Positions 41,183-63,822 of a stretch of DNA of 64,000 bases are shown here, piece after piece (the stretch's first letter is position 1; every line of letters begins with the position of its first letter). Where the stretch lies: sequence record NC_106597.1; one strand, written 5' to 3'. The DNA comes from Escherichia phage BB1. The translations under genes and the position numbers were made by a program. Under the pieces are notes generated by a model. That model made no database searches. It saw only the letters and a list, made by a program, of their open reading frames with translations, and was not told where the DNA came from.

Positions 41183-41188
41183 GCTTTT

Positions 41189-47577: not shown

Positions 47578-47606
47578 ATTATACAGAATTTTAAGGCTTA
47601 AAGCAA
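47578..47606 (-). promoter_or_regulatory. T5-type early sigma70 promoter
   Basis: Minus-strand TTGCTT - 17 bp - TATAAT then conserved leader ...ATAAATTAATGAGAGAGG. Confidence 0.65.
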
Positions 47607-47623
47607 CTGAATTTTTTAATTAC

Positions 47624-48055
47624 TTACCAATCGTTAACAACGCCGGAGAACTCAGAAGCAAAAACTTTTTCAAATTTCTCTGCAATTTCAGGATGATCTT
47701 TGCAGATCAGCTCAATACAGGCTTCTGGAGTCATTCCTTCATCTTCAGGATCCCCATAGTATTTATCCCAAAGATCATCAGGAATGATATGCTCCGCCAA
47801 ATCTTGGAAAGAGATTAACTGATAACGTTCTGCTTCCTCGGGGATAAGGATTTCACAAAGATCTTTATCTATATCACTACGGTAATCAGCAATTAGCAGG
47901 GCATTGCAAGCATGACACTCCCAAACCATCAAGCGTTCAGAAATAGGATTAGACTTATCCTGTACGTAAGACTGAAACAGGGTTCGGAAAGTTGCCTTAA
48001 CTTGTTCAAACTTATCTGCTGCTGCGAAAACTAGAGCTTTATCAACTTTGTTCAT
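47624..48055 (-). CDS. hypothetical acidic protein (143 aa)
   Basis: Acidic, Cys-containing ORF. Confidence 0.4.
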   Translation of the reverse strand: MNKVDKALVFAAADKFEQVKATFRTLFQSYVQDKSNPISERLMVWECHACNALLIADYRSDIDKDLCEILIPEEAERYQLISFQDLAEHIIPDDLWDKYYGDPEDEGMTPEACIELICKDHPEIAEKFEKVFASEFSGVVNDW

Positions 48056-48085
48056 TTTGTTTCCTTCTCATCAATTTATAAAGTA

Positions 48086-48114
48086 ATTATACAGAAACTT
48101 AAGCATTTTAGCAA
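48086..48114 (-). promoter_or_regulatory. T5-type early sigma70 promoter
   Basis: TTGCTA - 17 bp - TATAAT, leader ...ATAAATTGATGAGAAGG, 23 nt to ATG. Confidence 0.65.
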
Positions 48115-48214
48115 ATAAAACTTTTAATTAAAATGCCTAGTCCTGTACCAATAGCAATACAAATGATTATAAGTATTGCTACTACTTGTATGATTCGTTT
48201 AATAATACCCATGA

Positions 48215-48736
48215 TTAGACATTTAACATCCAACTAGTTTTATCATGAGAGGTATATTTACCACTCATTATGTCTTCCAGCCGTACTGGTGATTTTGCAT
48301 ACTCAACGCAAACGTTAATATAACGAGGGTCTCCCATTAACTCAAAGTGAGTATGCCCGTGTAAGTTCTTCTTGCCCCTTAACTCTTCTGGATGTACTGG
48401 AGCATGGGAAAGCCAAAAGTTTTTATACTTAACTAGGGATTGTACATTATCTACTACTCCTACTAAGTCTTTGAAAGATAATCCTTCTCGCTCTAAGTCG
48501 TGGTTCCCCAAAACTAATGTAGTTCTAACATTGCTAAAGAGTTTTTCGAACTTCTCCAAACCATTTCTAGATACAAATGCATCTCCTAAAATATAAAATA
48601 CTGTACGCTTATCTTTCATGGATGTAATAGTATCCATAATAAATTCATCATGCTCTTCCATAGTAGAGAAGATTGGTCTGAATTTAGTAATATTTGCATG
48701 TCCTAAGTGGAGATCACTCCAAAAGCAAACTTTCAT
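48215..48736 (-). CDS. metallophosphoesterase
   Basis: 173 aa; DLHLGH, GDAF, GNHD, GHTH calcineurin-like motifs. Confidence 0.6.
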   Translation of the reverse strand: MKVCFWSDLHLGHANITKFRPIFSTMEEHDEFIMDTITSMKDKRTVFYILGDAFVSRNGLEKFEKLFSNVRTTLVLGNHDLEREGLSFKDLVGVVDNVQSLVKYKNFWLSHAPVHPEELRGKKNLHGHTHFELMGDPRYINVCVEYAKSPVRLEDIMSGKYTSHDKTSWMLNV

Positions 48737-49611
48737 TAAAGAATCCTCTGTATGCCACAGCTATCTTCTCGAAGCGTGGTAAATGTTGTAATTTTGCCAG
48801 TTTCATCATTAACTTGCGCAACCGTCAACTGCCCGTTGAAAACACCGCCAGTATCTAGGTAAACACGATTCTGGTATAAAATAGGGTAAGGTACTCCAGT
48901 ATGCCCATGAAACACAAAGTCTACCCCACTAACTGGGGGTACTTCTACCATGTATTTCTCTTTAAACCCTGCATAACGCTGGAAATGTGAGTGTTCTTCA
49001 CCATTTTTAGCTAAGTGAAAACCTATTTCTTGGATTACATCTCGATCCCATAAGTATGGCTCAACATGGTATCCAGGATGGTCATGTGGGTCTTCCTTAG
49101 CTGTTTCTACTTGTGCAATAAGGCTATCCCATACTGGGGTTTCTACTTCGTTACCGCATTCTTTGTACGTAAAAGATACACCACCATGAACAACACCATA
49201 CTTTTTACCACGATGCAATACAGTCAGAAATACTGGCATTTTTTCAGCCATGTCTTCAGCAATATTTTTAATGGTATCTGCATCTAGTTCATTCATGGCC
49301 CACATACCACCGTTATACATCCAGTTAGCCCAATCTCCCACAATCATAAATTGGTCATGATTACCACGGACACTGATAAAGCGTGGATTATACAGGAATT
49401 TGGCTAAAACTTGTAGGTTCTGCGTGCCTCGATCAATTAAATCCCCTACGCATACAACGCAGTCTTTCTTGCCGTTATAGCCAGCTAATTGTAGTGCATC
49501 TTCTAGTAAATCGTTGCATCCATGAATATCCCCAACAAAGAATAAGTTAACATCATCAGGTACTACTAGTGTTTTATGCACATTAAATTCTTTTTTCATA
49601 ATTATTCCCAA
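48736..49611 (-). CDS. Ser/Thr protein phosphatase (lambda-PPase-like)
   Basis: 291 aa; GDIHG, GDLIDRG, GNHD motifs. Confidence 0.75.
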   Translation of the reverse strand: MGIIMKKEFNVHKTLVVPDDVNLFFVGDIHGCNDLLEDALQLAGYNGKKDCVVCVGDLIDRGTQNLQVLAKFLYNPRFISVRGNHDQFMIVGDWANWMYNGGMWAMNELDADTIKNIAEDMAEKMPVFLTVLHRGKKYGVVHGGVSFTYKECGNEVETPVWDSLIAQVETAKEDPHDHPGYHVEPYLWDRDVIQEIGFHLAKNGEEHSHFQRYAGFKEKYMVEVPPVSGVDFVFHGHTGVPYPILYQNRVYLDTGGVFNGQLTVAQVNDETGKITTFTTLREDSCGIQRIL

Positions 49612-49847
49612 ATAACATTTAAAATAGTTGTACCATAATTATTTGATAGTTTGAGAGTATAACCCTCTTTATTGAGGGCTTTTATAGCTTCATAACTAAT
49701 TTCGTCACGATTAAGCTGTACAAAAGAACCTCCAATCTCGACAGAAGATACTATCCTCCGCTTAACCCATCTATACGTTTTCTTTCGGCTCTTGAGAAGA
49801 GCAGCTCTATTAACTCTAGCTAAACGTTTTGCTTGCTCTGCTAACAT
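49602..49847 (-). CDS. hypothetical protein (81 aa)
   Basis: Basic ORF directly downstream of a promoter cassette. Confidence 0.4.
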   Translation of the reverse strand: MLAEQAKRLARVNRAALLKSRKKTYRWVKRRIVSSVEIGGSFVQLNRDEISYEAIKALNKEGYTLKLSNNYGTTILNVIWE

Positions 49848-49874
49848 TTAATCCTCCTATCAATCTATATAAAT

Positions 49875-49903
49875 ATTATACCAAAATTTTTAGCAAAAAG
49901 CAA
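49875..49903 (-). promoter_or_regulatory. T5-type early sigma70 promoter
   Basis: TTGCTT - 17 bp - TATAAT, leader ...GATTGATAGGAGG. Confidence 0.6.
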
Positions 49904-49944
49904 GTAAAATAAAAGCCTGATCCGCTAAGATCAGGCTTGGTTTA

Positions 49945-50235
49945 TTAATCCTCTGGATTATCATCCAGGAAATTTTTAATAGCTTCGTGCATAGTTTCTT
50001 TACGAAGCTGACGTCCAATCAAAATATGGTTAGCTTCTACTCGACCATTAGGTAAGCGATCCGCCAGAACTACTACAGGAACTTGGCGCACACCAAATTT
50101 CTGCATTAATTCTGTATTATCAGTCTCTTTATGGATTTCCAAATTATAGTCACTGACTACTTTATCAAATACTGGCTCAAACATTTTGCAAGGATTGCAA
50201 GTGGAACCTTTCAATAGATATACTAATTTACTCAT
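49945..50235 (-). CDS. thioredoxin/glutaredoxin-like protein
   Basis: 96 aa; CNPC redox motif early in a thioredoxin-fold-sized protein. Confidence 0.45.
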   Translation of the reverse strand: MSKLVYLLKGSTCNPCKMFEPVFDKVVSDYNLEIHKETDNTELMQKFGVRQVPVVVLADRLPNGRVEANHILIGRQLRKETMHEAIKNFLDDNPED

Positions 50236-50659
50236 AGTTATTAATGGCCTCTAAGAAGTTTTTCATAGTTTTTACAGTTGCGGTGCTCAGATCAAGATTT
50301 ACACCCAAACACTCGGTTAATGCTTCCTGATAAGGAGCCTTTAATCTGCCTTCTGGGACTTCTACCTTCTTATATTCTTTATTTTTGACCTTTTTAATCA
50401 TAGTCTCTAGTACAAGAAGTGGTAATTTAGCACCTTCAATATCAGTACCCAAAAGTTCAGTTAAAATTTTATTAAGATCAAGACGAGTTAACTTTTTGCC
50501 TTTAGACATAGGAGCACCTACCTTTGTATCAATAGATTTTTCCGCTTTCTTTTCGAGCTTTTTGTACTCAGGAGAGTCATGATCGCGGAGTGCAATGTTT
50601 AGCTCGTAATGTGGTATACGAAAATGTTCCGCCATTTGAGTATAGAAACGATCAGACAT
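50228..50659 (-). CDS. hypothetical protein (143 aa)
   Basis: ORF downstream of a promoter cassette. Confidence 0.4.
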   Translation of the reverse strand: MSDRFYTQMAEHFRIPHYELNIALRDHDSPEYKKLEKKAEKSIDTKVGAPMSKGKKLTRLDLNKILTELLGTDIEGAKLPLLVLETMIKKVKNKEYKKVEVPEGRLKAPYQEALTECLGVNLDLSTATVKTMKNFLEAINNYE

Positions 50660-50692
50660 AATATATACCTCTCTTAACTAATTTATGTATAT

Positions 50693-50721
50693 ATTATATA
50701 ATAACTGGGGCTAAAAGTCAA
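50693..50721 (-). promoter_or_regulatory. T5-type early sigma70 promoter
   Basis: TTGACT - 17 bp - TATAAT, leader ...ATAAATTAGTTAAGAGAGG. Confidence 0.6.
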
Positions 50722-50734
50722 CTACTTTTTTATC

Positions 50735-51151
50735 TTAATCTACTGCATGTATAAATCTTTTCCTAACTAGATACATAGTTATTGGGTAAATTGAGTACAT
50801 AAGTATCGGGGAGAAAAGGGTGAAATACGCTGTAACTCCCCCAGCTAACATCAAAGGTATTAATGCTAGAGTAAGGGCCATAAGAATCATGCCGAATGAA
50901 ACAGCCAAAGCTATGGATATAGGATTCTCTAGTTCCATCCATAACCAACAATATTTCGTATCTCTATGGCAATTGCATTTACAAACGCCGAATGAACCCA
51001 TAATTATATACTCTAGTCCGTGAATAACCTTTATTAATAAGCTATTTCGGGTAGTTAATGCAATGATAGTAAAGACTATCATTAAAACGAATACTACTAG
51101 ACTTATTTTCCAGATACCTAGCAGCATCATAGTGAATAGTTCTGCAAACAT
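50735..51151 (-). CDS. integral membrane protein (138 aa)
   Basis: Four predicted TM helices and a CxCxC motif; immediately downstream of the endolysin gene. Confidence 0.4.
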   Translation of the reverse strand: MFAELFTMMLLGIWKISLVVFVLMIVFTIIALTTRNSLLIKVIHGLEYIIMGSFGVCKCNCHRDTKYCWLWMELENPISIALAVSFGMILMALTLALIPLMLAGGVTAYFTLFSPILMYSIYPITMYLVRKRFIHAVD

Positions 51152-51228
51152 GGCTTTCTCCTATCTTCAAAAATTATTAAAGCCCCCTTTGCCTAAAAAG
51201 GCGGGAATATTCCCGCCTCAGTTATTAA

Positions 51229-51642
51229 TTAAACTAGTTCGACATGACCGCCATCATAGGTACCACGTTTTATTTCGTCGTGATAATCTCCTGAAGCATT
51301 CCAATCAGCACCAAAACGAAGTTTAATGCCTAGTTCTTTACCAGCTTGTTCAAAAGCCTTTTTAACTGCCCAAAATGCTTCTAAGTCATTCCAATCAATT
51401 TTGCCATTAATGTATGGAGCAAAATCAAGGGCATCCCCAGTAATATGCTTGCTTTTACTAGGATCTTTTAAAAATGAAGTACCATTAGCAATATTCTGGG
51501 CACTTTGTGCTACTGTACGAATACCCTGTACGATCGTGAAATCATATGGAGATAATTCTAAAGCTCTACGAGCTACTTTTTGTAGCTCTGGCTTAACGGT
51601 AGCTAATTGTTTTTCGCTATTTTTACCAAATTTAAAACTCAT
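51229..51642 (-). CDS. endolysin, L-alanyl-D-glutamate peptidase (M15 family, EndoT5-like)
   Basis: 137 aa; SKHITGDALD and GGHVE zinc-ligand motifs. Confidence 0.75.
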   Translation of the reverse strand: MSFKFGKNSEKQLATVKPELQKVARRALELSPYDFTIVQGIRTVAQSAQNIANGTSFLKDPSKSKHITGDALDFAPYINGKIDWNDLEAFWAVKKAFEQAGKELGIKLRFGADWNASGDYHDEIKRGTYDGGHVELV

Positions 51643-52295
51643 ATTGATCTACCTAAAGATCTCTGTTGTGGAGAACAGAGCTTTGTTAAATACTCGTTAA
51701 ATTTCTCAGAATCGGCCGCATCTACAGGATTATCTTTCCAAGCAATACCAATATATCCAGCATAGATATTGTTTAGATTGAAATACGGACAAGTGTATAT
51801 GTAATTAAAAGTAACGTTCTTAAACGCAGGTATATTTAACCCCATGTATTTATTTACTTTTACACTTAAATCCGATGCGTAGTTAAAGCCCTCTAAGTGA
51901 CGTCTATATAGCTCAGACGTTTTATTTACCGCTTTATCGGCCAAGTCAGCCCTATCTAATTGCGCATTGCTTTCCCATGCAATAATGTTAGAATAATCAT
52001 TAATGGCATCGGGTTTATACTTGACGACAAAAACAGCATCTGCACCCGTTTGAGAAAAGAGAACCATGCTCTTTTCTCTAGCTACATTAGGAAAGTTATC
52101 TATCCTTTGAGTTTGAACATCCTGTAGAACCGCAGACGTGGAGAAAGTCTTTAAGAACGACATCACCTCGCTAGTATTACTAACAAATAAGAAAATAATG
52201 ACAGCAACTAAGATAGTTAGCAGACGTTTAAGAAGCGATGCTGGATCTTTCGCTTCTTGGAGCAGTACTGTTAATAATTGTAAGAACTTTTCCAA
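51639..52295 (-). CDS. holin (T4 T-like, large periplasmic domain)
   Basis: 218 aa; single N-terminal TM helix then large soluble domain; TTG start after GGAGG; overlaps the endolysin start (ATGA). Confidence 0.55.
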   Translation of the reverse strand: MEKFLQLLTVLLQEAKDPASLLKRLLTILVAVIIFLFVSNTSEVMSFLKTFSTSAVLQDVQTQRIDNFPNVAREKSMVLFSQTGADAVFVVKYKPDAINDYSNIIAWESNAQLDRADLADKAVNKTSELYRRHLEGFNYASDLSVKVNKYMGLNIPAFKNVTFNYIYTCPYFNLNNIYAGYIGIAWKDNPVDAADSEKFNEYLTKLCSPQQRSLGRSI

Positions 52296-52319
52296 TTGTA
52301 ACCTCCTCTAACCATTACC

Positions 52320-52348
52320 ATTATACTAATTTTGGAGGAAAATTACAA
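52320..52348 (-). promoter_or_regulatory. candidate sigma70 promoter for the holin-endolysin operon
   Basis: TTGTAA - 17 bp - TATAAT on the minus strand, 25 nt upstream of the holin start. Confidence 0.4.
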
Positions 52349-52404
52349 TGTGTTTTTAAAGATCACTTCTGGAGCATAAAATTTTATCGTTGTCAAGAAG
52401 AATT

Positions 52405-52442
52405 TTAGATAAAAGAAAAGCCAGGGTCGTTAAACCCTGGCT
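52405..52442 (-). terminator. rho-independent terminator
   Basis: AGCCAGGG-tcgttaaa-CCCTGGCT hairpin followed on the minus strand by TTTCTTTTATC. Confidence 0.6.
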
Positions 52443-52451
52443 TAAAATTAC

Positions 52452-53051
52452 TTACTCTTCGTTATGCTCCTCGGATTGAGGTAACTGGGCTTTATTATAT
52501 TGCTCAGATCGATATTTTGCCAAGATTTCAATACGCTTATGGATTTCTTTGCTATCTAGATAGATATTTTTGTTGTCTTTTACCATCTCGTCGATTTCGT
52601 CTATTGAGAAGAACGGATAGTAGACATCTAGCATCATATCTTCTACGAACTTATTGTAAGATTCATAGGCTTTCTTGATTTCTTGACCCTTCTCACAGAA
52701 TCCGCCGGAGAACGTGTGTCCCATTAGCGTAGCATGTGGATGTACTACCCATCCATGGCAGGATAGGAAAATTGTGCAGTAAGCAGAAGCACTAGGACCA
52801 ACCAGATGTCCTATAACTGTTCCACGGCAATTAGCAATTAAGTTAGATAACTGTGCAGCAGTATCAACATAACCACCAGGGCCATTAATCATCAGATTAA
52901 TTTCGTCGTCCTCATTTGCTTGCATAAGTACCATTGATAAATCACGGTATTCATCTGGCGGACCTAATTCTTCATCAAAGAAAAAGGTATACTCATTAGA
53001 TTGGCGAATGGAGTGAAACAGGTTAGTCTTTTCTTCTTTTTTATTAGTCAT
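52452..53051 (-). CDS. ClpP-like serine peptidase, putative
   Basis: 199 aa; INGPGG followed by a candidate active-site Ser (GPSASAY) and His, as in S14 peptidases. Confidence 0.4.
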   Translation of the reverse strand: MTNKKEEKTNLFHSIRQSNEYTFFFDEELGPPDEYRDLSMVLMQANEDDEINLMINGPGGYVDTAAQLSNLIANCRGTVIGHLVGPSASAYCTIFLSCHGWVVHPHATLMGHTFSGGFCEKGQEIKKAYESYNKFVEDMMLDVYYPFFSIDEIDEMVKDNKNIYLDSKEIHKRIEILAKYRSEQYNKAQLPQSEEHNEE

Positions 53052-53063
53052 AGCGATCCTTGA

Positions 53064-53816
53064 TTATCCAACTAGTGGTTCTAGCTCTAAGTCACAGAAG
53101 TTATAAACTTCTAGTTTAAGGTTATTGATACCATCGAATTTATTAACTAATTCGTGAGTAATATATTTTGCAGGAATACCACTTTCAGATGGATGATCTG
53201 ATTTAATAGTAAACTTCTGCTCAGCGGGTACTACATTTACTATCAAAGAATCCATATCTAAATGGTTTGTTTCTCTGAGTAGCTCTCCTTCATTGGGGAA
53301 TCTAACATCTGTTATTACGGCGACGTCTGGGTCGTCTTTAGCGATGGATTGCTCCAGAATTATGAGCCAAATGCGTTCATGCACCAGCTGCCTTCCTAGC
53401 TCTGTCCCTACGAGCTGTAACATTTTTCTCGGAGAAATAAATAAACTATAAAGTCCGTCTTCTTTATTCTCTGAGATAAGTTGTTGAGGATTAAGGTATT
53501 TTTCCTCAAAAATAGGCCAAACGTACGAGAAGTCTTCAAACTTATCGATACCGTACTTAAACCACACATCTCTGGCTCGCTCCAATTGAGATTGTGTGAC
53601 CGTAAACCATTGGTCAACCTCTTTCCCCCTGCGCTCTCCTAGAAACTCTGGAGTTACACCGAGGATTACGGATGCAAGTTCATAAACGGGCTTAGCAAAA
53701 CTATAACGACGGGATAAACACGTTGGATACGTGTCATTACACCAATCGATAATTAATTTTGCAACGGTATCTTTTCCTGCACCTGCTTCGCCATGCAGAC
53801 CCACTAGTACACTCAT
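53064..53816 (-). CDS. deoxynucleoside monophosphate kinase
   Basis: 250 aa; P-loop GEAGAGKDT at the N-terminus. Confidence 0.6.
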   Translation of the reverse strand: MSVLVGLHGEAGAGKDTVAKLIIDWCNDTYPTCLSRRYSFAKPVYELASVILGVTPEFLGERRGKEVDQWFTVTQSQLERARDVWFKYGIDKFEDFSYVWPIFEEKYLNPQQLISENKEDGLYSLFISPRKMLQLVGTELGRQLVHERIWLIILEQSIAKDDPDVAVITDVRFPNEGELLRETNHLDMDSLIVNVVPAEQKFTIKSDHPSESGIPAKYITHELVNKFDGINNLKLEVYNFCDLELEPLVG

Positions 53817-54349
53817 TTATTAAGTTCCTCTAAAGTTGGTAAAGATTTTGTAGAATCAAAAGTTTCTATAACAGCATTTTCACCGTGCAATTGTAAACGA
53901 AGTTCATTGGCTCTTTTAACGGCGGATCCTAGATATAGGTAATCAAAGTGACCTCCGTATATATTATTACCCTTAGAATTAGCAACGTTTACTTCCCACT
54001 TCTGGTCACGTTTCTTCCAGCTAACTCCTAGATAACCAGATTTACTTCTGGCAGCTTTATTTCTCTGGTTTTCTTGGTTATTGGACTCTCTAAGATTTAG
54101 CCAACGATTGTCACCACCTACGCGGTTTATGTGATCCACCATCTCAGGAAAATAGCCCTCCATATAAAGGAATGCTAGCTGATGTGCTAGGTAAGGTTTT
54201 CCATCTACCTTTATTTGTATATACCCATCTTTCCTAAGTGTACCTGCAATATTACCCGCTTTTTGATTACCAACACTCACTAATCTAGTAAATAATCCAG
54301 TATCAGGGGTATATTCAAGTAATTCCTTTAACCTTTCTTGTGTCACCAC
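53813..54349 (-). CDS. HNH homing endonuclease (intact copy)
   Basis: 178 aa; AHQLAFLYMEGY...VDHINRVGGDNRWLNL...NQENQRNKA HNH core plus AP2-like YLGVSW; stop overlaps the kinase start. Confidence 0.7.
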   Translation of the reverse strand: MVTQERLKELLEYTPDTGLFTRLVSVGNQKAGNIAGTLRKDGYIQIKVDGKPYLAHQLAFLYMEGYFPEMVDHINRVGGDNRWLNLRESNNQENQRNKAARSKSGYLGVSWKKRDQKWEVNVANSKGNNIYGGHFDYLYLGSAVKRANELRLQLHGENAVIETFDSTKSLPTLEELNK

Positions 54350-54350
54350 A

Positions 54351-55739: not shown

Positions 55740-55770
55740 ATTTAATCCTCTTGCCTCAATCTATAAACAT

Positions 55771-55799
55771 ATTATACAAAAGTTTGGGCATCTAAGCAA
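55771..55799 (-). promoter_or_regulatory. T5-type early sigma70 promoter
   Basis: TTGCTT - 17 bp - TATAAT, leader ...ATAGATTGAGGCAAGAGG. Confidence 0.6.
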
Positions 55800-55807
55800 C
55801 TAAAATT

Positions 55808-55849
55808 TTGTTATAAAAATAGCCCAGTCGCAAAAGTGCAGGCTGGGCT
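55808..55849 (-). terminator. rho-independent terminator
   Basis: AGCCCAG ... CTGGGCT hairpin followed on the minus strand by ATTTTTATAAC. Confidence 0.5.
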
Positions 55850-55893
55850 TTGTCATTATTTGCTTTTGCTAGTAAGTTGACTTAGTGTCAATC

Positions 55894-56274: not shown

Positions 56275-56348
56275 TTACCGCACTAAGGGGCACGACTCCC
56301 TTATCCGTAACAGTTGCAGGTGACGCAACTCGGTCCTACGCGAGTTCT

Positions 56349-57323: not shown

Positions 57324-57597
57324 AACGACAAGTAAAAGAACTAGAGCTATTAGTACGTTGAGTAGTTATTTCACCATGTTTACTAATAGTAACGGCTGGA
57401 GTAGAGAAGTTTTTATTAGTATATATTTCTACTTTACCATTACGTTCCTTAACATCACGAACTTTACCATATTCAGTAATAATGCCGTTCTGTTGGACTT
57501 TAACATTGCCATTTTTCATAGAAACTTTGGTAGACGCCAGAGAACCGAAACTAACTGCGGAGATCATCAGTGCAATAATAAACTTATTCATCTTCAT
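57292..57597 (-). CDS. secreted small protein
   Basis: ORF 57292..57657; likely start at 57597 giving an MKMNKFIIALMISAVSFGSLAS signal peptide. Confidence 0.35.
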   Translation of the reverse strand: MKMNKFIIALMISAVSFGSLASTKVSMKNGNVKVQQNGIITEYGKVRDVKERNGKVEIYTNKNFSTPAVTISKHGEITTQRTNSSSSFTCRYDCDFEGEDE

Positions 57598-57865
57598 CCT
57601 CCCCACTACAATCACGACATACATCATAATCGTTGAAAGAGCGTTCGTGAGCTTCACACCACCAAGAACAAGAATCGCAGAGGAACATTTCGGTTTTCTC
57701 CAGTGCTTGACCTAAAAGATCATCAGCTTCCTCAGCAGTAATCTTCAATCCGCACACATCTGCCACACGTTCTTTAATTAAACGACCTGCTTCATGGTAA
57801 GACATACAGGTTCCCGCAACATCATGTTCAAGAACATGAATGGCACAGTCTAGGCGATTTTTCAT
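57584..57865 (-). CDS. Cys-rich small protein (93 aa)
   Basis: Paired CxxC-like motifs; directly downstream of a promoter cassette. Confidence 0.4.
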   Translation of the reverse strand: MKNRLDCAIHVLEHDVAGTCMSYHEAGRLIKERVADVCGLKITAEEADDLLGQALEKTEMFLCDSCSWWCEAHERSFNDYDVCRDCSGEDEDE

Positions 57866-57895
57866 TTCAAACCTCTCTCATCAATTTATAAATAT

Positions 57896-57924
57896 ATTAT
57901 AGCAAGAAAAGAGAGGTTTAGCAA
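57896..57924 (-). promoter_or_regulatory. T5-type early sigma70 promoter
   Basis: TTGCTA - 17 bp - TATAAT, leader ATATTTATAAATTGATGAGAGAGGTTTGAA then ATG. Confidence 0.65.
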
Positions 57925-57941
57925 ATGAATTATTTCAGAAT

Positions 57942-58289
57942 TTAGTCATAGCACCACCATAACCCACGCTTACGCATGTCATGATCGCGATTATAATCGT
58001 AATTTTCTGGATCTTTCATCACGCGGTGGAGTTCTTGACGATTCCCTTGACGAACCATTTTATTAGAATGCCACTTAACATTCTTACTAATAGAATTCCA
58101 GTTATAACCATCCTTTTTCTCATTACGAATGGTTGCTTCCTTCATTTCCTGTTCTACATCATCCCAGGATTTAGTATAAATAACACGAATCCAGTAGCCA
58201 TTTTCTTTAAGGAAAGAATATTCTTGAGAGAATTGTTCTTTAGACTTCCACCACTGATCACCAGATTGTTTACGATAAGTACGGCTCAT
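57942..58289 (-). CDS. hypothetical protein (115 aa)
   Basis: Trp/Lys-rich ORF. Confidence 0.4.
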   Translation of the reverse strand: MSRTYRKQSGDQWWKSKEQFSQEYSFLKENGYWIRVIYTKSWDDVEQEMKEATIRNEKKDGYNWNSISKNVKWHSNKMVRQGNRQELHRVMKDPENYDYNRDHDMRKRGLWWCYD

Positions 58290-58360
58290 ATTACCTCCAT
58301 TAAGTCTTTTAAATTAACCTAATGTGGATGAATTTTATTATACATAAATTATTTACCTAT

Positions 58361-58400
58361 ATACAGAAAAACCCCAGACTACTTATTCAATAGCTGGGGT
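58361..58400 (-). terminator. rho-independent terminator
   Basis: CCCCAG ... CTGGGG hairpin followed on the minus strand by GTTTTTCTG. Confidence 0.5.
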
Positions 58401-58410
58401 TTGTTATTAA

Positions 58411-58725
58411 TCACAGATCGGGGCGTTCATCTTCGAAACAGCTTGAGCTGATTCCTTCTCCGAATCCTACAAAGCCATCAAATTCATCATTTGAGATGCC
58501 CATAATCATTGCTTCCATTTTTCTAATCTCCGAAATTTTCATGCCTGCTTTACTATTCTTATAGTATTTGCGAGGGTTCCCACACATCCAACAAGAACAG
58601 ATGCAAGGAGTAGTAGTGATAATACCTAACCGCTTAGGGCTTTCTTCATGTGGGAAGACTGTCCAATACTTCTTGCGGTTGTTCTTCACACGTTGCCGGT
58701 GATGGCGTCTTAATGCTCGATCCAC
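58411..58725 (-). CDS. Cys-rich small protein (104 aa)
   Basis: CICSCWMCG cluster. Confidence 0.35.
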   Translation of the reverse strand: MDRALRRHHRQRVKNNRKKYWTVFPHEESPKRLGIITTTPCICSCWMCGNPRKYYKNSKAGMKISEIRKMEAMIMGISNDEFDGFVGFGEGISSSCFEDERPDL

Positions 58726-58806
58726 ACATTTCTCCTAAAACTTGGGAGATAAACGGAGTTTGCTCGACTACCTTGCGTAGTTCGGAGAAATCGTATCCAA
58801 ACCCCA

Positions 58807-59175
58807 TTACATCGCCTGAGTAAATGTACGACTAATAACGTCGTTCTGTTGTTCACGAGTCAGTGCGTTAAATCGAACAGCGTAGCCAGAGACACGGATG
58901 GTCAACTGAGGGTATTTTTCAGGATGTTTCTGCGCATCCAAAAGCTGATCACGGCTTAACACATTGACATTTAGGTGCTGACCACCTTCGATTTGAGGGG
59001 CGACTTCCACTTTGACTTCACGGAAGGCTTCGGGATCGAATTGTGGTGTGATACCTTCTAGATCTTCAACTAGAACTTTCTGTTTAAGTTCACCGTTGTC
59101 GGAGTATAGCTGAATAATCTGATTTTCATGAACAAGGTTAATTACGCCAGATTTAAGATTTTGATATGCTTTCAT
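58807..59175 (-). CDS. autonomous glycyl radical cofactor (GrcA/YfiD-like)
   Basis: 122 aa; glycyl-radical signature [25 protein letters not shown] and GGQHLNVNV...[10 protein letters not shown]. Confidence 0.8.
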
Positions 59176-59217
59176 TAGATCTCCCCGATGTTAGAATTTG
59201 GCTCAGCTATTTATTCT

Positions 59218-59412
59218 TTATACTTTTCCATAGTATACGGAAACTGTCTTACCAGTTTGGTTCATGACATATGCTACTTCATCTTCTTTTAAAAAGATGG
59301 CTTGGTCTACTCCAACTATAGCCAATCTTTTATTTCTAGGATTAAAGCTTACACTTTTGCCTGTATGAATCTGTTCCCCATTCTTGGCTGACATTATTTT
59401 AATTGTTAACAT
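59218..59412 (-). CDS. hypothetical protein (64 aa)
   Basis: Small ORF before the first tRNA. Confidence 0.35.
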   Translation of the reverse strand: MLTIKIMSAKNGEQIHTGKSVSFNPRNKRLAIVGVDQAIFLKEDEVAYVMNQTGKTVSVYYGKV

Positions 59413-59449
59413 AGCTGCTCCTAAAGTTAGCTATCTCTAGCTCTTTTAA

Positions 59450-59525
59450 TGGTAGTTAGTAGTGGATTTGAACCACTGTAGTCGCTCCGTATGAAGGAGG
59501 TGCATAACCTCTCTGCCAACTAACT
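59450..59525 (-). tRNA. tRNA-Met (anticodon CAT; could be an Ile2 or initiator type)
   Basis: Hand-folded: 7-bp acceptor, T-arm AGTGG-TTCAAAT-CCACT, anticodon loop TTCATAC, encoded CCA. Confidence 0.55.
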
Positions 59526-59678
59526 AGTTAATTCTTTATAGGTTAGATCTAGAAGATCTTTCTTACTGATAAGTCCTTCTCTATATTGGTCAATAAACAT
59601 ATCTATTCTAGAGTTCTCTGAGACTTCTATATCAGAAAGTTCAGCAAATATTTTTGCAAGTTTATCAATATCTTCCAT
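59521..59678 (-). CDS. hypothetical small protein (52 aa)
   Basis: Sub-threshold ORF between two tRNAs. Confidence 0.25.
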
Positions 59679-59692
59679 ACATAACCTTAATT

Positions 59693-59769
59693 TGGTACTC
59701 CGGGAGGGATTTAAACCCCCGATCTCTCGGTTATCAGCCGAGTGCTTTAGATCGCTAAGCTACCGAAGC
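59693..59769 (-). tRNA. tRNA-Ile (anticodon GAT)
   Basis: Hand-folded: acceptor with G-U pairs, anticodon stem CTCGG/CCGAG, loop CTGATAA, T-arm GGGGG-TTTAAAT-CCCTC, encoded CCA. Confidence 0.55.
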
Positions 59770-59770
59770 A

Positions 59771-59998
59771 TTAACATTTTACAGCAGAGCGTTTGCCATT
59801 TCTAGGTGCACCTGGAAGTCGTGCACGTTCTGCCATTCTTCGCTTAATCTTTGAGATATTTTCTAGTGTTTGTTCTTCAGGCTTAATACTTGAAACACTA
59901 CACCACTGATTACCATCCCATGCGGTAATGATCATAACACCATTACTCATGATCTTTTCTGTAAAAGTAATCCTCATTATAGCAACTCGTCTAAGCAA
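59771..59998 (-). CDS. hypothetical protein
   Basis: 75-aa ORF. Confidence 0.3.
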   Translation of the reverse strand: MLRRVAIMRITFTEKIMSNGVMIITAWDGNQWCSVSSIKPEEQTLENISKIKRRMAERARLPGAPRNGKRSAVKC

Positions 59999-60270
59999 GA
60001 GGTATATTTAAGTTTACCATCTTTATCTACTTTGATTTCGACTTCCGCTCGTGGTACTTGACGAACTGCACCATGAATCATCTTATAGTTAATAGACTTA
60101 GACGGTTCATAATCTTTTGGAAAGACTTGCTTAACCGTTACTACCTTGTACCCCTCACGCGGTGTTAGTACAACTACTTGATCACCTTCTTTGATTTTCC
60201 AAGAGCCAGGAAATTCATAGGTATAGCGTTGACCACCAGTTTGGAACACAACAGAAAGATAACGTTTCAT
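59977..60270 (-). CDS. hypothetical protein (97 aa)
   Basis: Directly downstream of a promoter cassette. Confidence 0.4.
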   Translation of the reverse strand: MKRYLSVVFQTGGQRYTYEFPGSWKIKEGDQVVVLTPREGYKVVTVKQVFPKDYEPSKSINYKMIHGAVRQVPRAEVEIKVDKDGKLKYTSCLDELL

Positions 60271-60300
60271 TTGGTTTCCCTCTCATTAATTTATATAAAT

Positions 60301-60329
60301 ATTATAACAATAAATAAGAGAGAAAGCAA
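60301..60329 (-). promoter_or_regulatory. T5-type early sigma70 promoter
   Basis: TTGCTT - 17 bp - TATAAT, leader ...ATAAATTAATGAGAGGG. Confidence 0.65.
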
Positions 60330-60337
60330 ATGAATTT

Positions 60338-60505
60338 TTAATAAAGTTTAGTCACTTCATAAACTATACTACGAGATTCTTTATTACGTTCTATTAAATT
60401 AGCATATGCTTTTTCAGCTTCATTTTTAGTATTAAAGTCTATAACGTGGGAGGTATTCGCTCTATTTGAATAACTATACCAGATAACTACTAATAATTTA
60501 AACAT
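60338..60505 (-). CDS. hypothetical small protein
   Basis: ORF 60338..60532 starts at GTG inside the adjacent tRNA; ATG at 60505 more likely. Confidence 0.3.
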   Translation of the reverse strand: MFKLLVVIWYSYSNRANTSHVIDFNTKNEAEKAYANLIERNKESRSIVYEVTKLY

Positions 60506-60519
60506 AATAGTCCTTAAAT

Positions 60520-60606
60520 TGGTGCTGGGCACAGGATTCGAACCTGCAACGGGATTACTCCTCCTGATTACAAATCAGGTGCATTCAACCATTCTGCCAA
60601 CCCAGC
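60520..60606 (-). tRNA. tRNA, class II-like (long variable arm), anticodon reads TGT; identity uncertain
   Basis: Perfect 7-bp acceptor, T-arm GCAGG-TTCGAAT-CCTGT, encoded CCA, 3-bp D-stem, 16-nt variable region, anticodon stem CCTGA/TCAGG with loop TTTGTAA. Confidence 0.4.
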
Positions 60607-60614
60607 AGAACCCG

Positions 60615-60779
60615 TTATTTCAACGGGATTTCTTTTTCAATAACAGGAGACTTATCAGTCATAACTGTCATTGCCATTTGTTGTAGAAATTCAAAGGTGA
60701 AGGCTACACGCTCTTCACCAATCTCTACTTCTACACGTTTCTTTTGTTTGTCGATCTTGACTTTTAGGTTATCAGCCAT
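60615..60779 (-). CDS. hypothetical small protein (53 aa)
   Basis: Sub-threshold ORF; ATG overlaps the stop of the upstream 83-aa ORF. Confidence 0.25.
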   Translation of the reverse strand: MADNLKVKIDKQKKRVEVEIGEERVAFTFEFLQQMAMTVMTDKSPVIEKEIPLK

Positions 60780-61023
60780 TAGATAGTACAGTACTGGTAG
60801 TTGGCAATACTACAGATGAAGCAACAGTGTTTAAATGCTTTCTCCAGTCTAGGTTAAATTGTTTTCGAAACTCTTCATAAGGTTCTTCTGGATAAAAGCT
60901 AAAACCTCCTTTCTCATCATTCAGGATAACAGAGCCGTCAGTTTGTTCGTATGCTCGGTATGTTTCTCCAATAACAATAACTCGTTTATCGGTACTTTTA
61001 TTACGAAACTCAAAAACGTGCAT
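60772..61023 (-). CDS. hypothetical protein (83 aa)
   Basis: ATG start at 61023. Confidence 0.35.
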   Translation of the reverse strand: MHVFEFRNKSTDKRVIVIGETYRAYEQTDGSVILNDEKGGFSFYPEEPYEEFRKQFNLDWRKHLNTVASSVVLPTTSTVLSNG

Positions 61024-61039
61024 AATGTTTCCTTAAAGT

Positions 61040-61115
61040 TGGAGCGGCTAGAGGGAATCGAACCCTACTCAGCGAGGCTTGGAAGGCCTGCGACACAACC
61101 CGTGTGCTTAACCGC
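61040..61115 (-). tRNA. tRNA-Gly (anticodon TCC; Trp-CCA reading not excluded)
   Basis: Acceptor GCGGTTA/TAGCCGC, T-loop TTCGATT, anticodon loop CTTCCAA, encoded CCA. Confidence 0.45.
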
Positions 61116-61123
61116 TTATTATT

Positions 61124-61199
61124 TGGCTGGAGAAGGAGGAATCGAACCTACCATTAACGGAGTCAAAGGCCGTTGTGCTAACCGTTACACTACTCTCCA
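61124..61199 (-). tRNA. tRNA-Gln (anticodon TTG)
   Basis: Acceptor TGGAGAG/TTCTCCA, anticodon stem ACGGC/TCCGT, loop CTTTGAC, T-loop TTCGATT, encoded CCA. Confidence 0.5.
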
Positions 61200-61205
61200 A
61201 TTATT

Positions 61206-61281
61206 TGGCTGGAGTGCCTGGGATCGAACCAGGAACCTTCGGAGTCAGAGGCCGACGATCTGCCAATTGATCTACACTCCA
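61206..61281 (-). tRNA. tRNA-Gln (anticodon CTG)
   Basis: Acceptor TGGAGTG/CACTCCA, D-arm GATC-AATTGGCA-GATC, anticodon loop CTCTGAC, T-arm CCTGG-TTCGATC-CCAGG, encoded CCA. Confidence 0.5.
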
Positions 61282-61290
61282 AAAATGCTA

Positions 61291-61527
61291 TTAACTAGAC
61301 GCTGTTTCTACCGGCTGAGATACAGCAGGCTGTTCTAACGTATCTGGTACTGATACAGAGAAAAGAGCTTGTAATGCTGCAATATCACGCTCGTAAGTAT
61401 CAATACGAGTAGTAAGAGTATCTACCATCTGTTTATGGTAGGCTAAGTTATTCTGAGATTCATCTCGAAGAGTTTGCAGTTCTGCAAGACGTGTTAACAT
61501 AATTTCACTAATTAAAGCATTACTCAT
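61291..61527 (-). CDS. hypothetical coiled-coil protein (78 aa)
   Basis: ORF between tRNAs. Confidence 0.35.
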   Translation of the reverse strand: MSNALISEIMLTRLAELQTLRDESQNNLAYHKQMVDTLTTRIDTYERDIAALQALFSVSVPDTLEQPAVSQPVETASS

Positions 61528-61717
61528 TTGTTTCTCCTAAGTTTTCCGGTTCTTCTAAACGTTTGCCTTCATGATCTACTCGAATAACTCCGCATCCTTC
61601 GCAAATCACAACTGCACCATAACCTTCTTTGACCTCAGCTTCTGTAATCAAACCAGAAAGATCACCAGTATCTCTGCCCCACATATCAATGGAGCATTGT
61701 TTGCAGAAATCAGCCAT
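61520..61717 (-). CDS. zinc-ribbon-like small protein (65 aa)
   Basis: CKQC ... CEGCG Cys pairs. Confidence 0.35.
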   Translation of the reverse strand: MADFCKQCSIDMWGRDTGDLSGLITEAEVKEGYGAVVICEGCGVIRVDHEGKRLEEPENLGETNE

Positions 61718-61742
61718 ATTTTATTTCCTATTTAAGTTAATT

Positions 61743-61819
61743 TGGGGTGGCTAGTGGAATTCGAATCCACATAGGCCTGATTCACAATCAGGATCATTAA
61801 CCAGTTATGATATAGCCAC
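61743..61819 (-). tRNA. tRNA-His (anticodon GTG)
   Basis: Acceptor GTGGCTA/TAGCCAC, D-stem TCAT/ATGA, anticodon stem CCTGA/TCAGG with loop TTGTGAA, T-arm GTGGA-TTCGAAT-TCCAC, encoded CCA. Confidence 0.6.
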
Positions 61820-62187
61820 AATTGAAAACTCGCAGGGTTAGCGAAACCATCCTCAATTAGCATGTTCTAGAATACTAATCAAGTTATCTCCTATTGCACG
61901 CAGCTCAAGACGAGTACGAATTTTCAATTGTGGCGGCTCTCAGAAACTCTTCTCCTCTAGCCTTAGCAGCTTACTCCCGAACGCATGTCGGGTAAGTCTT
62001 ACTAAGAACATCAAGTAGCACCGTTACACTTTGAGCCATAGATATATCAAGAAGCAGAAGGACTTGAACCTTCATGAGATAGACCATTTATCTCAGCCGC
62101 TTTATGAGGTATGTTGCAGGGAGTGGATGTTCCCTATAAACCTTTTAGGCAGCCCCGTCTACCGATTCCGGCATACTTCAAGAATTT

Positions 62188-62361
62188 TTATAAACCAGCA
62201 GAAGCCTCATTCAAAGCATCAACAATAGCTTCACGTTGGGTCATTCCATACCCGGTGGAATCTAGGTGGGGCAAATAAGCCATCCATCCCTTATCTGTTT
62301 CATGAAGACATGCTTTAAATTTTTTACCATCCTTCATTGTTACAGTAACTGTTTTGCTCAT
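62188..62361 (-). CDS. hypothetical small protein (57 aa)
   Basis: Sub-threshold ORF with SD AAGGAAA; MSKTVTVTMKDGKKF... Confidence 0.3.
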   Translation of the reverse strand: MSKTVTVTMKDGKKFKACLHETDKGWMAYLPHLDSTGYGMTQREAIVDALNEASAGL

Positions 62362-62381
62362 AAGATTTCCTTATAGTTAAT

Positions 62382-62471
62382 TGGCAGAAGATAATGGAGT
62401 CGAACCATCACCGTATCACTACAGCGGGCTGGTTTTCAAGACCAGTTACGTACCACTACGTCCTATCTTCT
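62382..62471 (-). tRNA. tRNA-Ser (anticodon TGA)
   Basis: 90 nt with long variable arm; anticodon arm CTGGT-CTTGAAA-ACCAG; T-arm GATGG-TTCGACT-CCATT; perfect 7-bp acceptor; encoded CCA. Confidence 0.65.
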
Positions 62472-62477
62472 ATTATT

Positions 62478-62568
62478 TGGCGGAAGAGGAGAGATTTGAA
62501 CTCTCAAGCCGTTTTACCAGTCAGCCACTTTCCAAGCGGTTTTCGTCGCCAATTCGATTTGCTCTTCC
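62478..62568 (-). tRNA. tRNA-Ser (anticodon GGA)
   Basis: 91 nt with long variable arm; anticodon loop TTGGAAA; T-arm GAGAG-TTCAAAT-CTCTC; perfect acceptor GGAAGAG/CTCTTCC; encoded CCA. Confidence 0.6.
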
Positions 62569-62680
62569 AATAATAAGATGATGCCTCTATCACACCAGGC
62601 AGTTACGCCCCGCTGGGATTCGAACCCATTAAAACAGCTCAACCGAGATAGTAGGTTTAATTTACTCTGACCATCAAATT

Positions 62681-62757
62681 TGGTGCGTGACAAGGGATTC
62701 GAACCCTCAAAACCCGACTTCTAAGGACGGTATGTATGCCAATTCCATCAATCACGC
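62681..62757 (-). tRNA. tRNA with anticodon reading TAG (Leu-type anticodon in a short-variable-arm scaffold); identity uncertain
   Basis: Acceptor GCGTGAT/GTCACGC, T-arm GAGGG-TTCGAAT-CCCTT, encoded CCA, anticodon stem CCGTC/GTCGG (one mismatch) with loop CTTAGAA. Confidence 0.4.
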
Positions 62758-62762
62758 ATATT

Positions 62763-62841
62763 TGGTGGAGAATAACGGAATCGAACCGTTCTGATGTCCT
62801 CGGTGCAAGCGAGGTGTCCACTCCATGCAGACCCATTCCCC
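62763..62841 (-). tRNA. tRNA-Ala (anticodon TGC)
   Basis: Acceptor GGGGAAT/ATTCTCC with the G3-U70 pair diagnostic of tRNA-Ala; anticodon stem CCTCG/CGAGG, loop CTTGCAC; T-arm AACGG-TTCGATT-CCGTT; encoded CCA. Confidence 0.6.
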
Positions 62842-63079
62842 AAATTCTTTAGTTTACTAAGGCTATTAGCTCGGCGTAACTACAGCACCTTCGCTTCGAG
62901 CGGAAGGAACCGCGTCATCTCGCAAACCCGATACACTATTCAGTTGCCGCTGAATCTAGTGGACTAATCTAGAACTTCTCCCGAATCGTAGGGATCGTGC
63001 TTTTTGGCAGCCAGTCCTAGGTCGAGCTAATACCTTAGTGAACTATGATGAGGATTTCTCCTCATCAATTTATATAAAT

Positions 63080-63108
63080 ATTATAACAAGAAATTAAGCA
63101 TCAAGCAA
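63080..63108 (-). promoter_or_regulatory. T5-type early sigma70 promoter with no downstream ORF (drives a non-coding leader and the tRNA cluster)
   Basis: TTGCTT - 17 bp - TATAAT; leader ATTTATATAAATTGATGAGGAGAAATCCTCATC forms a hairpin over the SD-like GAGGAG; no ATG follows. Confidence 0.6.
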
Positions 63109-63126
63109 CTGCATTTTTCTTGAAAT

Positions 63127-63205
63127 TGGTAGATCGCCTGGGACTCGAACCCAGAACCTTCCGATTAAAAGTCGGATGCTACTAAACCTATTGAGCTAGC
63201 GATCT
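63127..63205 (-). tRNA. tRNA-Lys (anticodon TTT)
   Basis: Perfect acceptor AGATCGC/GCGATCT, anticodon stem TCCGA/TCGGA with loop CTTTTAA, T-arm CTGGG-TTCGAGT-CCCAG, encoded CCA. Confidence 0.55.
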
Positions 63206-63206
63206 A

Positions 63207-63374
63207 TTAGTAACCATTATATACTTCTTTAATAGAGTGAACTTTCAAGTAAGGGTGATTAATCCCAAACTTCGCCATTACTTCTTTCTCATCTTTTCCA
63301 TAATGAGCAAGTAAGGATTTTGAGGTATTCTTACCTAAACGTTTGTCACTTACTACTAATCGAAATACTTTCAT
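63207..63374 (-). CDS. hypothetical small protein (55 aa)
   Basis: Sub-threshold ORF with SD AGAGGA 6 nt upstream, between two tRNAs. Confidence 0.3.
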   Translation of the reverse strand: MKVFRLVVSDKRLGKNTSKSLLAHYGKDEKEVMAKFGINHPYLKVHSIKEVYNGY

Positions 63375-63394
63375 TTCGAAATCCTCTATTAAAA

Positions 63395-63472
63395 TGGAAG
63401 CGGGTGCAGGAATCGAACCTACCTCTTTCTAGCTTATGAGACTAGCGATCTCTACCAGAGATCTAACCCGCA
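63395..63472 (-). tRNA. tRNA-Met (anticodon CAT), second copy
   Basis: Anticodon loop CTCATAA, T-arm GTAGG-TTCGATT-CCTGC, encoded CCA; 1:72 position unpaired. Confidence 0.5.
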
Positions 63473-63478
63473 ATTGTT

Positions 63479-63554
63479 TGGTCAGTGCGGCAGGACTCGA
63501 ACCTGCGACCCGAAGCATCCAAGGCTCCCACGCTACCAACTGCGCTACGCACTG
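63479..63554 (-). tRNA. tRNA-Pro (anticodon TGG)
   Basis: Perfect acceptor CAGTGCG/CGCACTG, D-arm GCGC-AGTTGGTA-GCGT, anticodon loop CTTGGAT, T-arm GCAGG-TTCGAGT-CCTGC, encoded CCA. Confidence 0.6.
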
Positions 63555-63563
63555 TTAATTCTT

Positions 63564-63761
63564 TTATTGTGGAGGAATATTAATAATTCGTCCGTCTACA
63601 CAATAAACGGTACTAGGAATTGTACTATATATGTAGAAATTCTTTATATTACTCTCTCCGCCACAGAAATTTTTAGCAAATTCATACTCTTTATTAATGG
63701 TTGAGTCAAGTTTAAAACAACCAGTAAGTAGGAATACAGACAGCAGTAAAACTTTTTTCAT
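63564..63761 (-). CDS. small lipoprotein (65 aa)
   Basis: Signal peptide with lipobox LTGC; directly downstream of a promoter cassette. Confidence 0.4.
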   Translation of the reverse strand: MKKVLLLSVFLLTGCFKLDSTINKEYEFAKNFCGGESNIKNFYIYSTIPSTVYCVDGRIINIPPQ

Positions 63762-63793
63762 TTTGCTTTCCTTCTCAACACTTTATAAGGTAT

Positions 63794-63822
63794 ATTATAC
63801 CGAGAATTAAGCGAAATAGCAA
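63794..63822 (-). promoter_or_regulatory. T5-type early sigma70 promoter
   Basis: TTGCTA - 17 bp - TATAAT, leader ...AAGTGTTGAGAAGGAAAGCAAA then ATG. Confidence 0.6.

Follow-up and report, generated by a model that had tools for sequence, protein, structure and literature searches.

The early promoters of bacteriophage T5 share a design that has been described since the 1980s; the original descriptions are said to be those of Gentz and Bujard in 1985 and of Kammerer et al. in 1986. Here we examine a reiterated module of this design in a 64,000-nucleotide stretch of DNA from Escherichia phage BB1 (record NC_106597.1; the whole stretch is called the window below). An earlier note on this DNA had reported at least nine minus-strand copies of a promoter fused to a conserved leader, all between 47578 and 63822, and had likened them to the strong T5 early promoters. 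The T5 promoter N25 comprises an UP element, a −35 element reading TTGctt, a 17-bp spacer, a TATAAT −10 element and a 6-bp discriminator. Initiation at N25 is limited at promoter escape, and in vitro the yield of RNA falls ∼10-fold when positions +3 to +20 are replaced, as in the “antiDSR” of Kammerer et al. (PMC12464699). Phage AKFV33 has 32 T5-like promoters with the consensus TTGCTw, a 17–18 bp spacer, TATAATA, AAAAATT upstream of −43 and TAAATT at +1 (PMC3326045). What mainly sets the early promoters of T5 apart from the late ones is reported to be the discriminator, for which the early consensus is ATATT; gpT5.026 binds the host polymerase, weakens its contact with the discriminator and lowers early transcription, such that early transcripts rise ∼5-fold without gpT5.026 (Klimuk et al. 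2020, PMC7472727).

The copies in the window share phage group, genome positions and anatomy with the T5 early promoters (P-N25, P-N26, P-H207, P-K28a/b, P11, P13a/b, P15a). They differ from them by a few base changes per copy and in nothing substantive, and the differences between the two phages lie nearby, in HNH-type insertions and a different receptor-binding/llp module. The AKFV33 promoters have the same consensus as the window copies, including the −43 AAAAATT and +1 TAAATT blocks, but their description ends at TAAATT and is silent on the GATGAGAGAGG continuation, on class specificity and on copies without an open reading frame (ORF) (PMC3326045). Lambda PR and T7 A1 resemble the window copies in their use of sigma-70 holoenzyme, near-consensus hexamers, an UP element and an effect of the initial sequence on escape (PMC12464699). 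These are single promoters, whereas the T5 class comprises ∼30 per genome, with a common initial transcribed sequence that doubles as leader and ribosome-binding site (RBS). The finding is correct but already known: the copies are orthologous to annotated T5 promoters, and their consensus is in print for AKFV33.

The nine minus-strand sites named in the earlier note (47578, 48086, 49875, 50693, 55771, 57896, 60301, 63080 and 63794) proved exact in a hexamer-pattern scan. All nine carry a perfect TATAAT and a 17-bp spacer behind a −35 element that reads TTGCTT (five copies), TTGCTA (three) or TTGACT (one), just as described, and the conserved leader is also present, reading ATAAATT(G/A)ATGAGAG(A)GG or near variants. 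The pattern TTG-N20-TATAAT has 13 matches in the window versus 1.85 ± 1.42 expected from 100 dinucleotide-preserving shuffles, none of which reaches 13. With a 74-bp weight matrix (−50 to +24) derived from the nine minus-strand copies only, the source copies score 51.6–77.6 bits, and 20 shuffled windows reach 4.0 at best. The motif scan that had been proposed as a check, run on the window, recovers the nine copies and adds a tenth full copy of 49.4 bits at 30240–30313 on the plus strand; the count of at least nine was right but incomplete, since this copy lies outside the range first given. A generic sigma-70 consensus scan of the window finds 48 sites versus 52.6 expected in shuffles, which is no excess, and omits the five TTGCTT copies, in which 3 of 6 positions are shared with TTGACA. 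Because this generic scan stays at shuffle level in AT-rich DNA, what stands out above chance is the module as a whole, and not hexamer similarity alone.

The upstream end of the module is an A-rich block, AAAAATT (∼−45 to −38), found in 9 of 10 copies; in its place, the 49875 copy has the T-tail of an overlapping terminator. Information content is high at −45 to −38 in the window copies and in a T5-only consensus alike. The spacer is A/T-rich, ending in TGn in half of the copies, and the 6-nt discriminator has at most two G/C in every copy, with the consensus ATtTtT. ATA[A/G]ATT starts 7 nt past TATAAT in 9 of 10 copies, the 63794 copy being degenerate and shifted by 1. A 6-bp discriminator places the predicted +1 at the A 7 nt past TATAAT, a register that would agree with the 6–8 nt downstream of TATAAT given by the earlier note. 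The start codon follows 21–27 nt from the predicted +1, and a purine run at +11 to +18 (GAGAGG/AAGGA) lies 4–8 nt ahead of it in all nine ORF-bearing copies. A distance of 6–9 nt between RBS and start codon had been claimed and is roughly right, measuring 4–8 nt from the Shine-Dalgarno core in the eight of nine minus-strand copies that an ATG follows; 49875 is on the short side. The nine-copy matrix also has a 29-bit match on the opposite strand over the 60301 copy, at 60256–60329 (+), as it does at T5 P11. This match is very likely an echo and not a divergent promoter, since an A/T palindrome, ATTTATATAAAT, spans +1.

Every one of the nine copies coincides with a promoter annotated in the T5 reference record AY543070, which we used for alignment and promoter annotation, so the likeness to strong early promoters of T5 is borne out. 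With the copy at the llp position, positional orthology extends to 10 of 10, the named promoters being P-F30, P11, P13b and P13a. The T5 record holds ∼45 annotated promoters, mostly as 75-bp features. Applied to the whole T5 genome, the window-only matrix gives 30 matches above 20 bits, 29 of them among the 43 annotated promoters checked and the thirtieth a reverse-strand echo of P11. The promoters retrieved include P-N25, P-N26, P-H207, P-K28a, P-D/E33, P11, P13a/b and P14b, as well as P15a/b/c, P16-17, P31A and the llp promoter. All matches lie in the T5 early region, at 16–76 kb, except for the llp promoter, which itself scores 49.4 bits with the window matrix; llp lies at the distal end of the late region.

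The module belongs to early-class promoters only. In the window, the late P-G25 and P-J5, the pre-early P-H22 and the holin promoter are represented by orthologs that all have sigma-70 hexamers, and some have a strong GAGGAG RBS, but none of the four has the ATAAATT...GAGAGG leader. The site at 52320, which matches TTG-N20-TATAAT and was considered as a tenth minus-strand member, was rejected: it is the holin promoter, with an unrelated transcribed part and no leader.

Each block of the module is under purifying selection. We measured variability over distinct ortholog variants in 27 relatives (T5, three Epseptimavirus genomes and 23 IMG/VR loci), picking orthologs as the best match with a floor of 75% identity. 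The share of positions that vary is 0.000 in the −10 element, 0.024 in the −35 element, 0.024 at +1 to +7 and 0.059 in the UP block. It rises to 0.09–0.12 in the spacer, the discriminator (0.117) and +8 to +17, with the Shine-Dalgarno part at 0.105, and to 0.17–0.23 at the edges of the module. In each of the nine modules, conservation exceeds that of the 74 nt situated 40 nt downstream.

Features of the window and their counterparts in T5. Modules span −50 to +24; +1 positions are predicted, and T5 coordinates refer to AY543070.
Feature	Position	Strand	Promoter elements	Leader or downstream part	T5 counterpart or comment
Early-class module, 47578 copy	47548..47621	−	−35 TTGCTT starts 47606; −10 starts 47583; +1 A at 47571	26-nt leader, ATAAATTAATGAGAGAGGAAATTCTA; RBS-supported start 47545; in-frame in-leader ATG 47563	Promoter 16245–16319, upstream of T5.032; base-for-base identical
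Early-class module, 48086 copy	48056..48129	−	−35 TTGCTA; +1 48079	Start codon 48055	P-F30; identical 74-mer at 16749–16822
Early-class module, 49875 copy	49845..49918	−	+1 49868; upstream part overlaps intrinsic terminator, stem 49913–49938	Start codon 49847	Promoter 18550–18624, itself overlapping terminator 18607–18637
Early-class module, 50693 copy	50663..50736	−	−35 TTGACT; +1 50686	Leader variant ATAAATTAGTTAAGAGAGG; start codon 50659	Promoter 19368–19442, upstream of T5.038
Early-class module, 55771 copy	55741..55814	−	+1 55764	Start codon 55739	Promoter 24443–24517, upstream of T5.047
Early-class module, 57896 copy	57866..57939	−	Extended −10 (TGc); +1 57889	Leader = consensus ATAAATTGATGAGAGAGG; start codon 57865	Promoter 26722–26796, upstream of T5.053
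Early-class module, 60301 copy	60271..60344	−	Extended −10 (TGt); +1 60294	Start codon 60270	P11, 28597–28671
Early-class module, 63080 copy	63050..63123	−	+1 63073	No ORF behind	P13b, 32001–32075
Early-class module, 63794 copy	63764..63837	−		Leader TATAAAGTGTTGAGAAGG, the most divergent, its register shifted by 1; +1 63786/7; start codon 63761	P13a, 32757–32831
Tenth full copy (30255)	30240..30313	+	−35 TTGCTT starts 30255; −10 starts 30278; +1 30290	Small ORF, start codon 30315, begins MKKFVIALV	Positional match: promoter 110349–110423, upstream of early lipoprotein gene llp
Structured non-coding RNA, ∼200 nt, RNA2H homolog	62842..63045	−		Predicted transcript of 63080 copy	
tRNA-Ala	62763–62841				tRNA call; directly after RNA2H homolog
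tRNA-Leu	62681–62757				tRNA call; after tRNA-Ala
Partial relative (membership uncertain)	42217..42264	−	TTGACA-18-TATAAT	AATCTC ATAGATT; no RBS, no credible ORF downstream	
Partial relative (membership uncertain)	37190..37216	+	−35 not recognisable; TATAAT	ATACTT ATAAATTAATGAGAA	Pre-early divergent region
Holin promoter, not a member	52295..52368	−	TTGTAA-17-TATAAT	GGTAATGGTTAGAGGAGG; no ATAAATT leader	20998–21071
Late P-G25 ortholog, not a member	13514..13588	−	TTGATA-17-TATAAT; 7.2 bits	ATTGTTATTAAAGAGGAG	Identical to 92013–92087
Late P-J5 ortholog, not a member	20675–20749				
Pre-early P-H22 ortholog, not a member	36417–36491				
End of early region	1–3.6 kb				Aligned with T5
Late genes	∼3.7–30 kb				Aligned with T5; llp area next
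Single terminal-repeat copy with pre-early genes	31.6–41.7 kb (31621–41653)				Aligned with T5
Left early region including tRNA cluster	41.7–64 kb				Aligned with T5

Each copy is almost certainly a host sigma-70 promoter that belongs to the “early” class of T5 and is joined to a short, standard 5′ leader, a reading carried by the sequence anatomy, the orthology to annotated T5 promoters, the restriction to the early class and the purifying selection on every block. In this model, the UP block and the near-consensus elements would recruit host polymerase very fast, which would leave escape from the promoter as the slow step, and the native initial transcribed sequence, being C-poor and rich in A/T and purines, would keep escape fast. 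The same 20 nt would serve as an unstructured AU-rich leader with a strong RBS, the purine run doubling as the Shine-Dalgarno sequence. Repetition of the unit every 0.5–5 kb would provide a separate strong start for every small block of early genes and for the RNA/tRNA clusters. The 6-bp discriminator (hence +1), the escape-limited initiation and the ∼10-fold loss on replacement of +3 to +20 are taken from the N25 literature; by analogy, these properties would transfer to each copy, and the AU-rich part may likewise act in translation.

A number of points weigh against this reading. Most of the 75-bp promoter features of the T5 record are unnamed and may be predictions, and in T5-infected cells primer-extension products were obtained for only 11 of 19 promoters known in vitro (PMC7472727). 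The literal ATATT signature published for the early discriminator occurs in 1 of 10 window copies, the rest having A/T-rich variants. A paralog occasionally taken as the best match could slightly flatter the conservation of the consensus positions, and for the window phage both promoter activity and the exact +1 positions are predictions from the DNA. Our literature search for a genome-wide map of transcription start sites in a T5-like phage found none.

Conservation of the leader might reflect translation only, through AU-rich ribosome loading and the Shine-Dalgarno sequence, so that each copy would be an ordinary promoter with a standardized RBS. The behavior of the purine run fits this idea: present before the start codon in every ORF-bearing copy, it decays in the RNA-feeding T5 promoters P15b, P16-17 and P14a. 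However, ATAAATT is retained in the ORF-less copies, namely 63080/P13b and T5 P15b and P16-17, the latter two of which directly precede tRNA-Ser3 and RNAX in the T5 record. Positions +1 to +7 vary as little as the −35 element and less than the Shine-Dalgarno part; late and holin promoters have an equally good Shine-Dalgarno sequence (GAGGAG) without ATAAATT; and the 10-fold drop in RNA on replacing N25 +3 to +20 was seen in vitro, with translation not involved (PMC12464699). Since ATAAATT is kept in ORF-less copies where the purine run decays or is paired, we count bases +1 to +7 as part of the promoter and ascribe the purine run to translation, and we consider a purely translational leader highly improbable. 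A different proposal, which could hold alongside the sigma-70 early-promoter explanation, is that the discriminator and +1 to +7 form a class tag, read by a phage factor (e.g., gpT5.026 or the D5 protein) that turns early promoters off at late onset; the conservation would then reflect regulation rather than raw strength. The restriction of this block to early-class promoters, the −35-like constraint on +1 to +7 and the action of gpT5.026 on the discriminator contact described by Klimuk et al. all point this way. Yet the effect in vitro was only moderate, and the link was offered as a possibility (PMC7472727). The discriminator is also among the more variable parts of the module, and comparison of the ten copies side by side revealed no operator-like dyad symmetry common to all, the short A/T palindromes that surround +1 being limited to a subset of them. 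We therefore regard a class tag as unlikely, though clearly more plausible than a leader conserved for translation only.

T4-type PeSL (promoter-early stem-loop) cassettes, reportedly defined by Arbiol et al. in 2010 through their role in modular shuffling, are likewise early-promoter units that recur among the small early genes of a large virulent phage. In these the stem-loop is integral, whereas a single window cassette (49875) has a scan-detected overlapping terminator; T5 annotates one further terminator, at the ortholog of the 55771 copy. If the window cassettes were recombination linkers of this kind, their mutual similarity would allow gene blocks to be swapped or deleted, and this would be a main reason for their reiteration. 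Alignment breakpoints with relatives do occur at the edges of 7 of 9 cassettes (e.g., 47624, 48139–48144, 49849–49862, 57859/60, 60339–60348, 63045, 63113–63127 and 63756/7). In the distant relative L028 the 55771 cassette is 100% identical and the protein encoded downstream 56% identical, and in three Epseptimavirus relatives the homolog of the RNA behind the 63080 copy lacks a directly upstream cassette. However, when window 46–64 kb was aligned with the 27 relatives (70 clustered breakpoints), breakpoints fell at 5 of 8 cassette junctions versus 29 of 44 cassette-free gene/tRNA junctions (Fisher p = 1.0), and those common to most relatives flank two HNH-like ORFs, at 46730–47285 and 53810–54348. 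No hybrid cassette of the sort left by deletion between two cassettes was seen, and a conserved island beside a fast-evolving gene would end BLAST alignments too, without recombination. As breakpoints are not enriched at cassettes over other junctions, we rejected a PeSL-like linker role, which we find scarcely credible as a main reason for reiteration; mosaicism tracks gene boundaries generally and not cassettes specifically. The two ORFs, 53813–54349 (−) and 46866–47273 (−), align at 65–67% nucleotide identity with H-N-H endonuclease genes that T5 carries in other places (hegE, hegJ), and in 26 of 27 relatives the alignment breaks exactly at the edges of ORF 53813–54349. They look like homing-endonuclease insertions and are the chief source of synteny breaks here.

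The in-leader ATG does mislead ORF callers, as had been pointed out. At the 47578 copy, the ATG at 47563 is in frame and is the start given in the mechanical ORF list (98 aa). In the public annotation of ECOP18, the nearest relative, ECOP18_064 (MT080103.1 41592–41888) likewise starts at the equivalent in-leader ATG, at 98 aa. In the T5 record, with an identical leader, T5.032 starts at the equivalent of 47545, 18 nt downstream of the in-leader ATG, and the 47545 start lies 7 nt past the Shine-Dalgarno core. The mis-call is confined to the 47578 copy because the in-leader ATG is out of frame or promptly stopped in the others. The in-leader start is probably a recurrent mis-annotation in T5-like genomes.

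The 63080 copy indeed has no ORF, there being no ATG in the 40 nt past the module; it was also said to feed the tRNA operon, and here the claim needs amending, as a structured RNA precedes the tRNAs. Positions +7 to +28 of the transcript form a 9-bp hairpin (63046–63067) that pairs GAGGAG. Among the relatives this hairpin has no compensatory double change, only single-sided ones, with A-U replaced by G.U or, in T5, an A.C mismatch; as a conserved element it is unproven. The RNA that follows, at 62842–63045, folds better than shuffles (z = −5.9) and has 61 consensus pairs across 12 relatives, 10 of which are kept via changes on both sides. Its entire 3′ hairpin is rewritten between lineages, and one stem-loop has a 22-nt insertion. 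In the T5 record the homolog behind P13b is labeled “RNA2H, stable RNA with unknown functions”, and tRNA-Ala and tRNA-Leu come after it. A search of 58.5–64 kb with Rfam returned tRNAs only and no family for the leader or the 62842–63045 RNA. In the three Epseptimavirus relatives (L004:24508-24741, L005:22957-23212, L006:24083-24315), the RNA2H homolog has no promoter cassette and hairpin directly upstream, the homology beginning at transcript position 29 (compared with window 63046–63123). As the RNA occurs there without an adjoining cassette, RNA and promoter are separable units.

Two further observations concern the tRNA cluster. A weak tRNA-like match at 61043–61116 (−) (Rfam tRNA-Sec, 30.9 bits, below threshold), not called by ARAGORN, stands at the place of T5 tRNA-Gly(UCC) and may be a decayed tRNA gene. 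The ARAGORN tRNA-Thr at 60520–60606 (−) is 87 nt long versus 75 nt in T5, and ∼175 nt, including a 64-aa ORF, separate it from the P11-type promoter in the window phage, whereas the two abut in T5.

Searching the window for the −10 element and leader alone returned two partial relatives. The one at 42217–42264 (−), to all appearance a strong promoter, adjoins the stop of a 242-aa ORF and aims into ∼600 nt with no credible ORF; from 42217 down to the terminal-repeat boundary at 41653, the DNA contains repeated GGCGGTTA and TCTAGAA motifs. T5 has no promoter annotated at the equivalent position, and the T5/window alignment ends at 41995. Around the one at 37190–37216 (+), a 230-nt stretch takes the place of 678 nt in T5 that hold hegG and its promoter, and very AT-rich, AATAA-repetitive DNA follows.

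Judged by alignment, the window is DNA of a T5-like phage (Demerecviridae, Tequintavirus-like). Escherichia phage ECOP18 is 96.6% identical over window 47.4–52.4 kb, AKFV33 is 94.5% identical over 78% of window 40–64 kb, and hundreds of Salmonella and Escherichia T5-like phages match; identity to T5 is ∼82–94% across the promoter region. The window passes from late genes through one terminal repeat into the left early region, and this order therefore identifies the source sequence as a permuted assembly in which the ∼10-kb terminal repeat is collapsed. Window 28473–30859, holding the receptor-binding protein and llp area, has no DNA-level alignment with T5, which suggests a receptor specificity differing from that of T5. 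Within it, the small lipoprotein-like ORF starting at 30315 keeps an early-class promoter in front despite its non-T5 surroundings.

The T5 N25-type promoter ranks with the best-studied in bacteria and is the base of widely used expression vectors, so the copies bring no new mechanistic insight. The biological question they touch is the shut-off of early promoters in T5 with an unmodified sigma-70 polymerase, which is already under study. We can offer here only a speculative and rather doubtful proposal, a shade less likely than a class tag in general: besides favoring escape, the −6 to +7 block might be a tag for a polymerase-bound factor (gpT5.026 or a partner) that mediates early shut-off at the early-to-late switch. 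If true, this would explain both the −35-like constraint and the absence of the block from pre-early, late and holin promoters. A discriminator tag has already been floated by Klimuk et al. (PMC7472727), and the new part would be its extension to the first transcribed bases and its demonstration. In T5-like genomes, early transcription units can be recognized reliably by this module. Its main value lies in annotation, where it fixes true start codons, such as that at 47545, and flags non-coding units such as the RNA2H/tRNA cluster.

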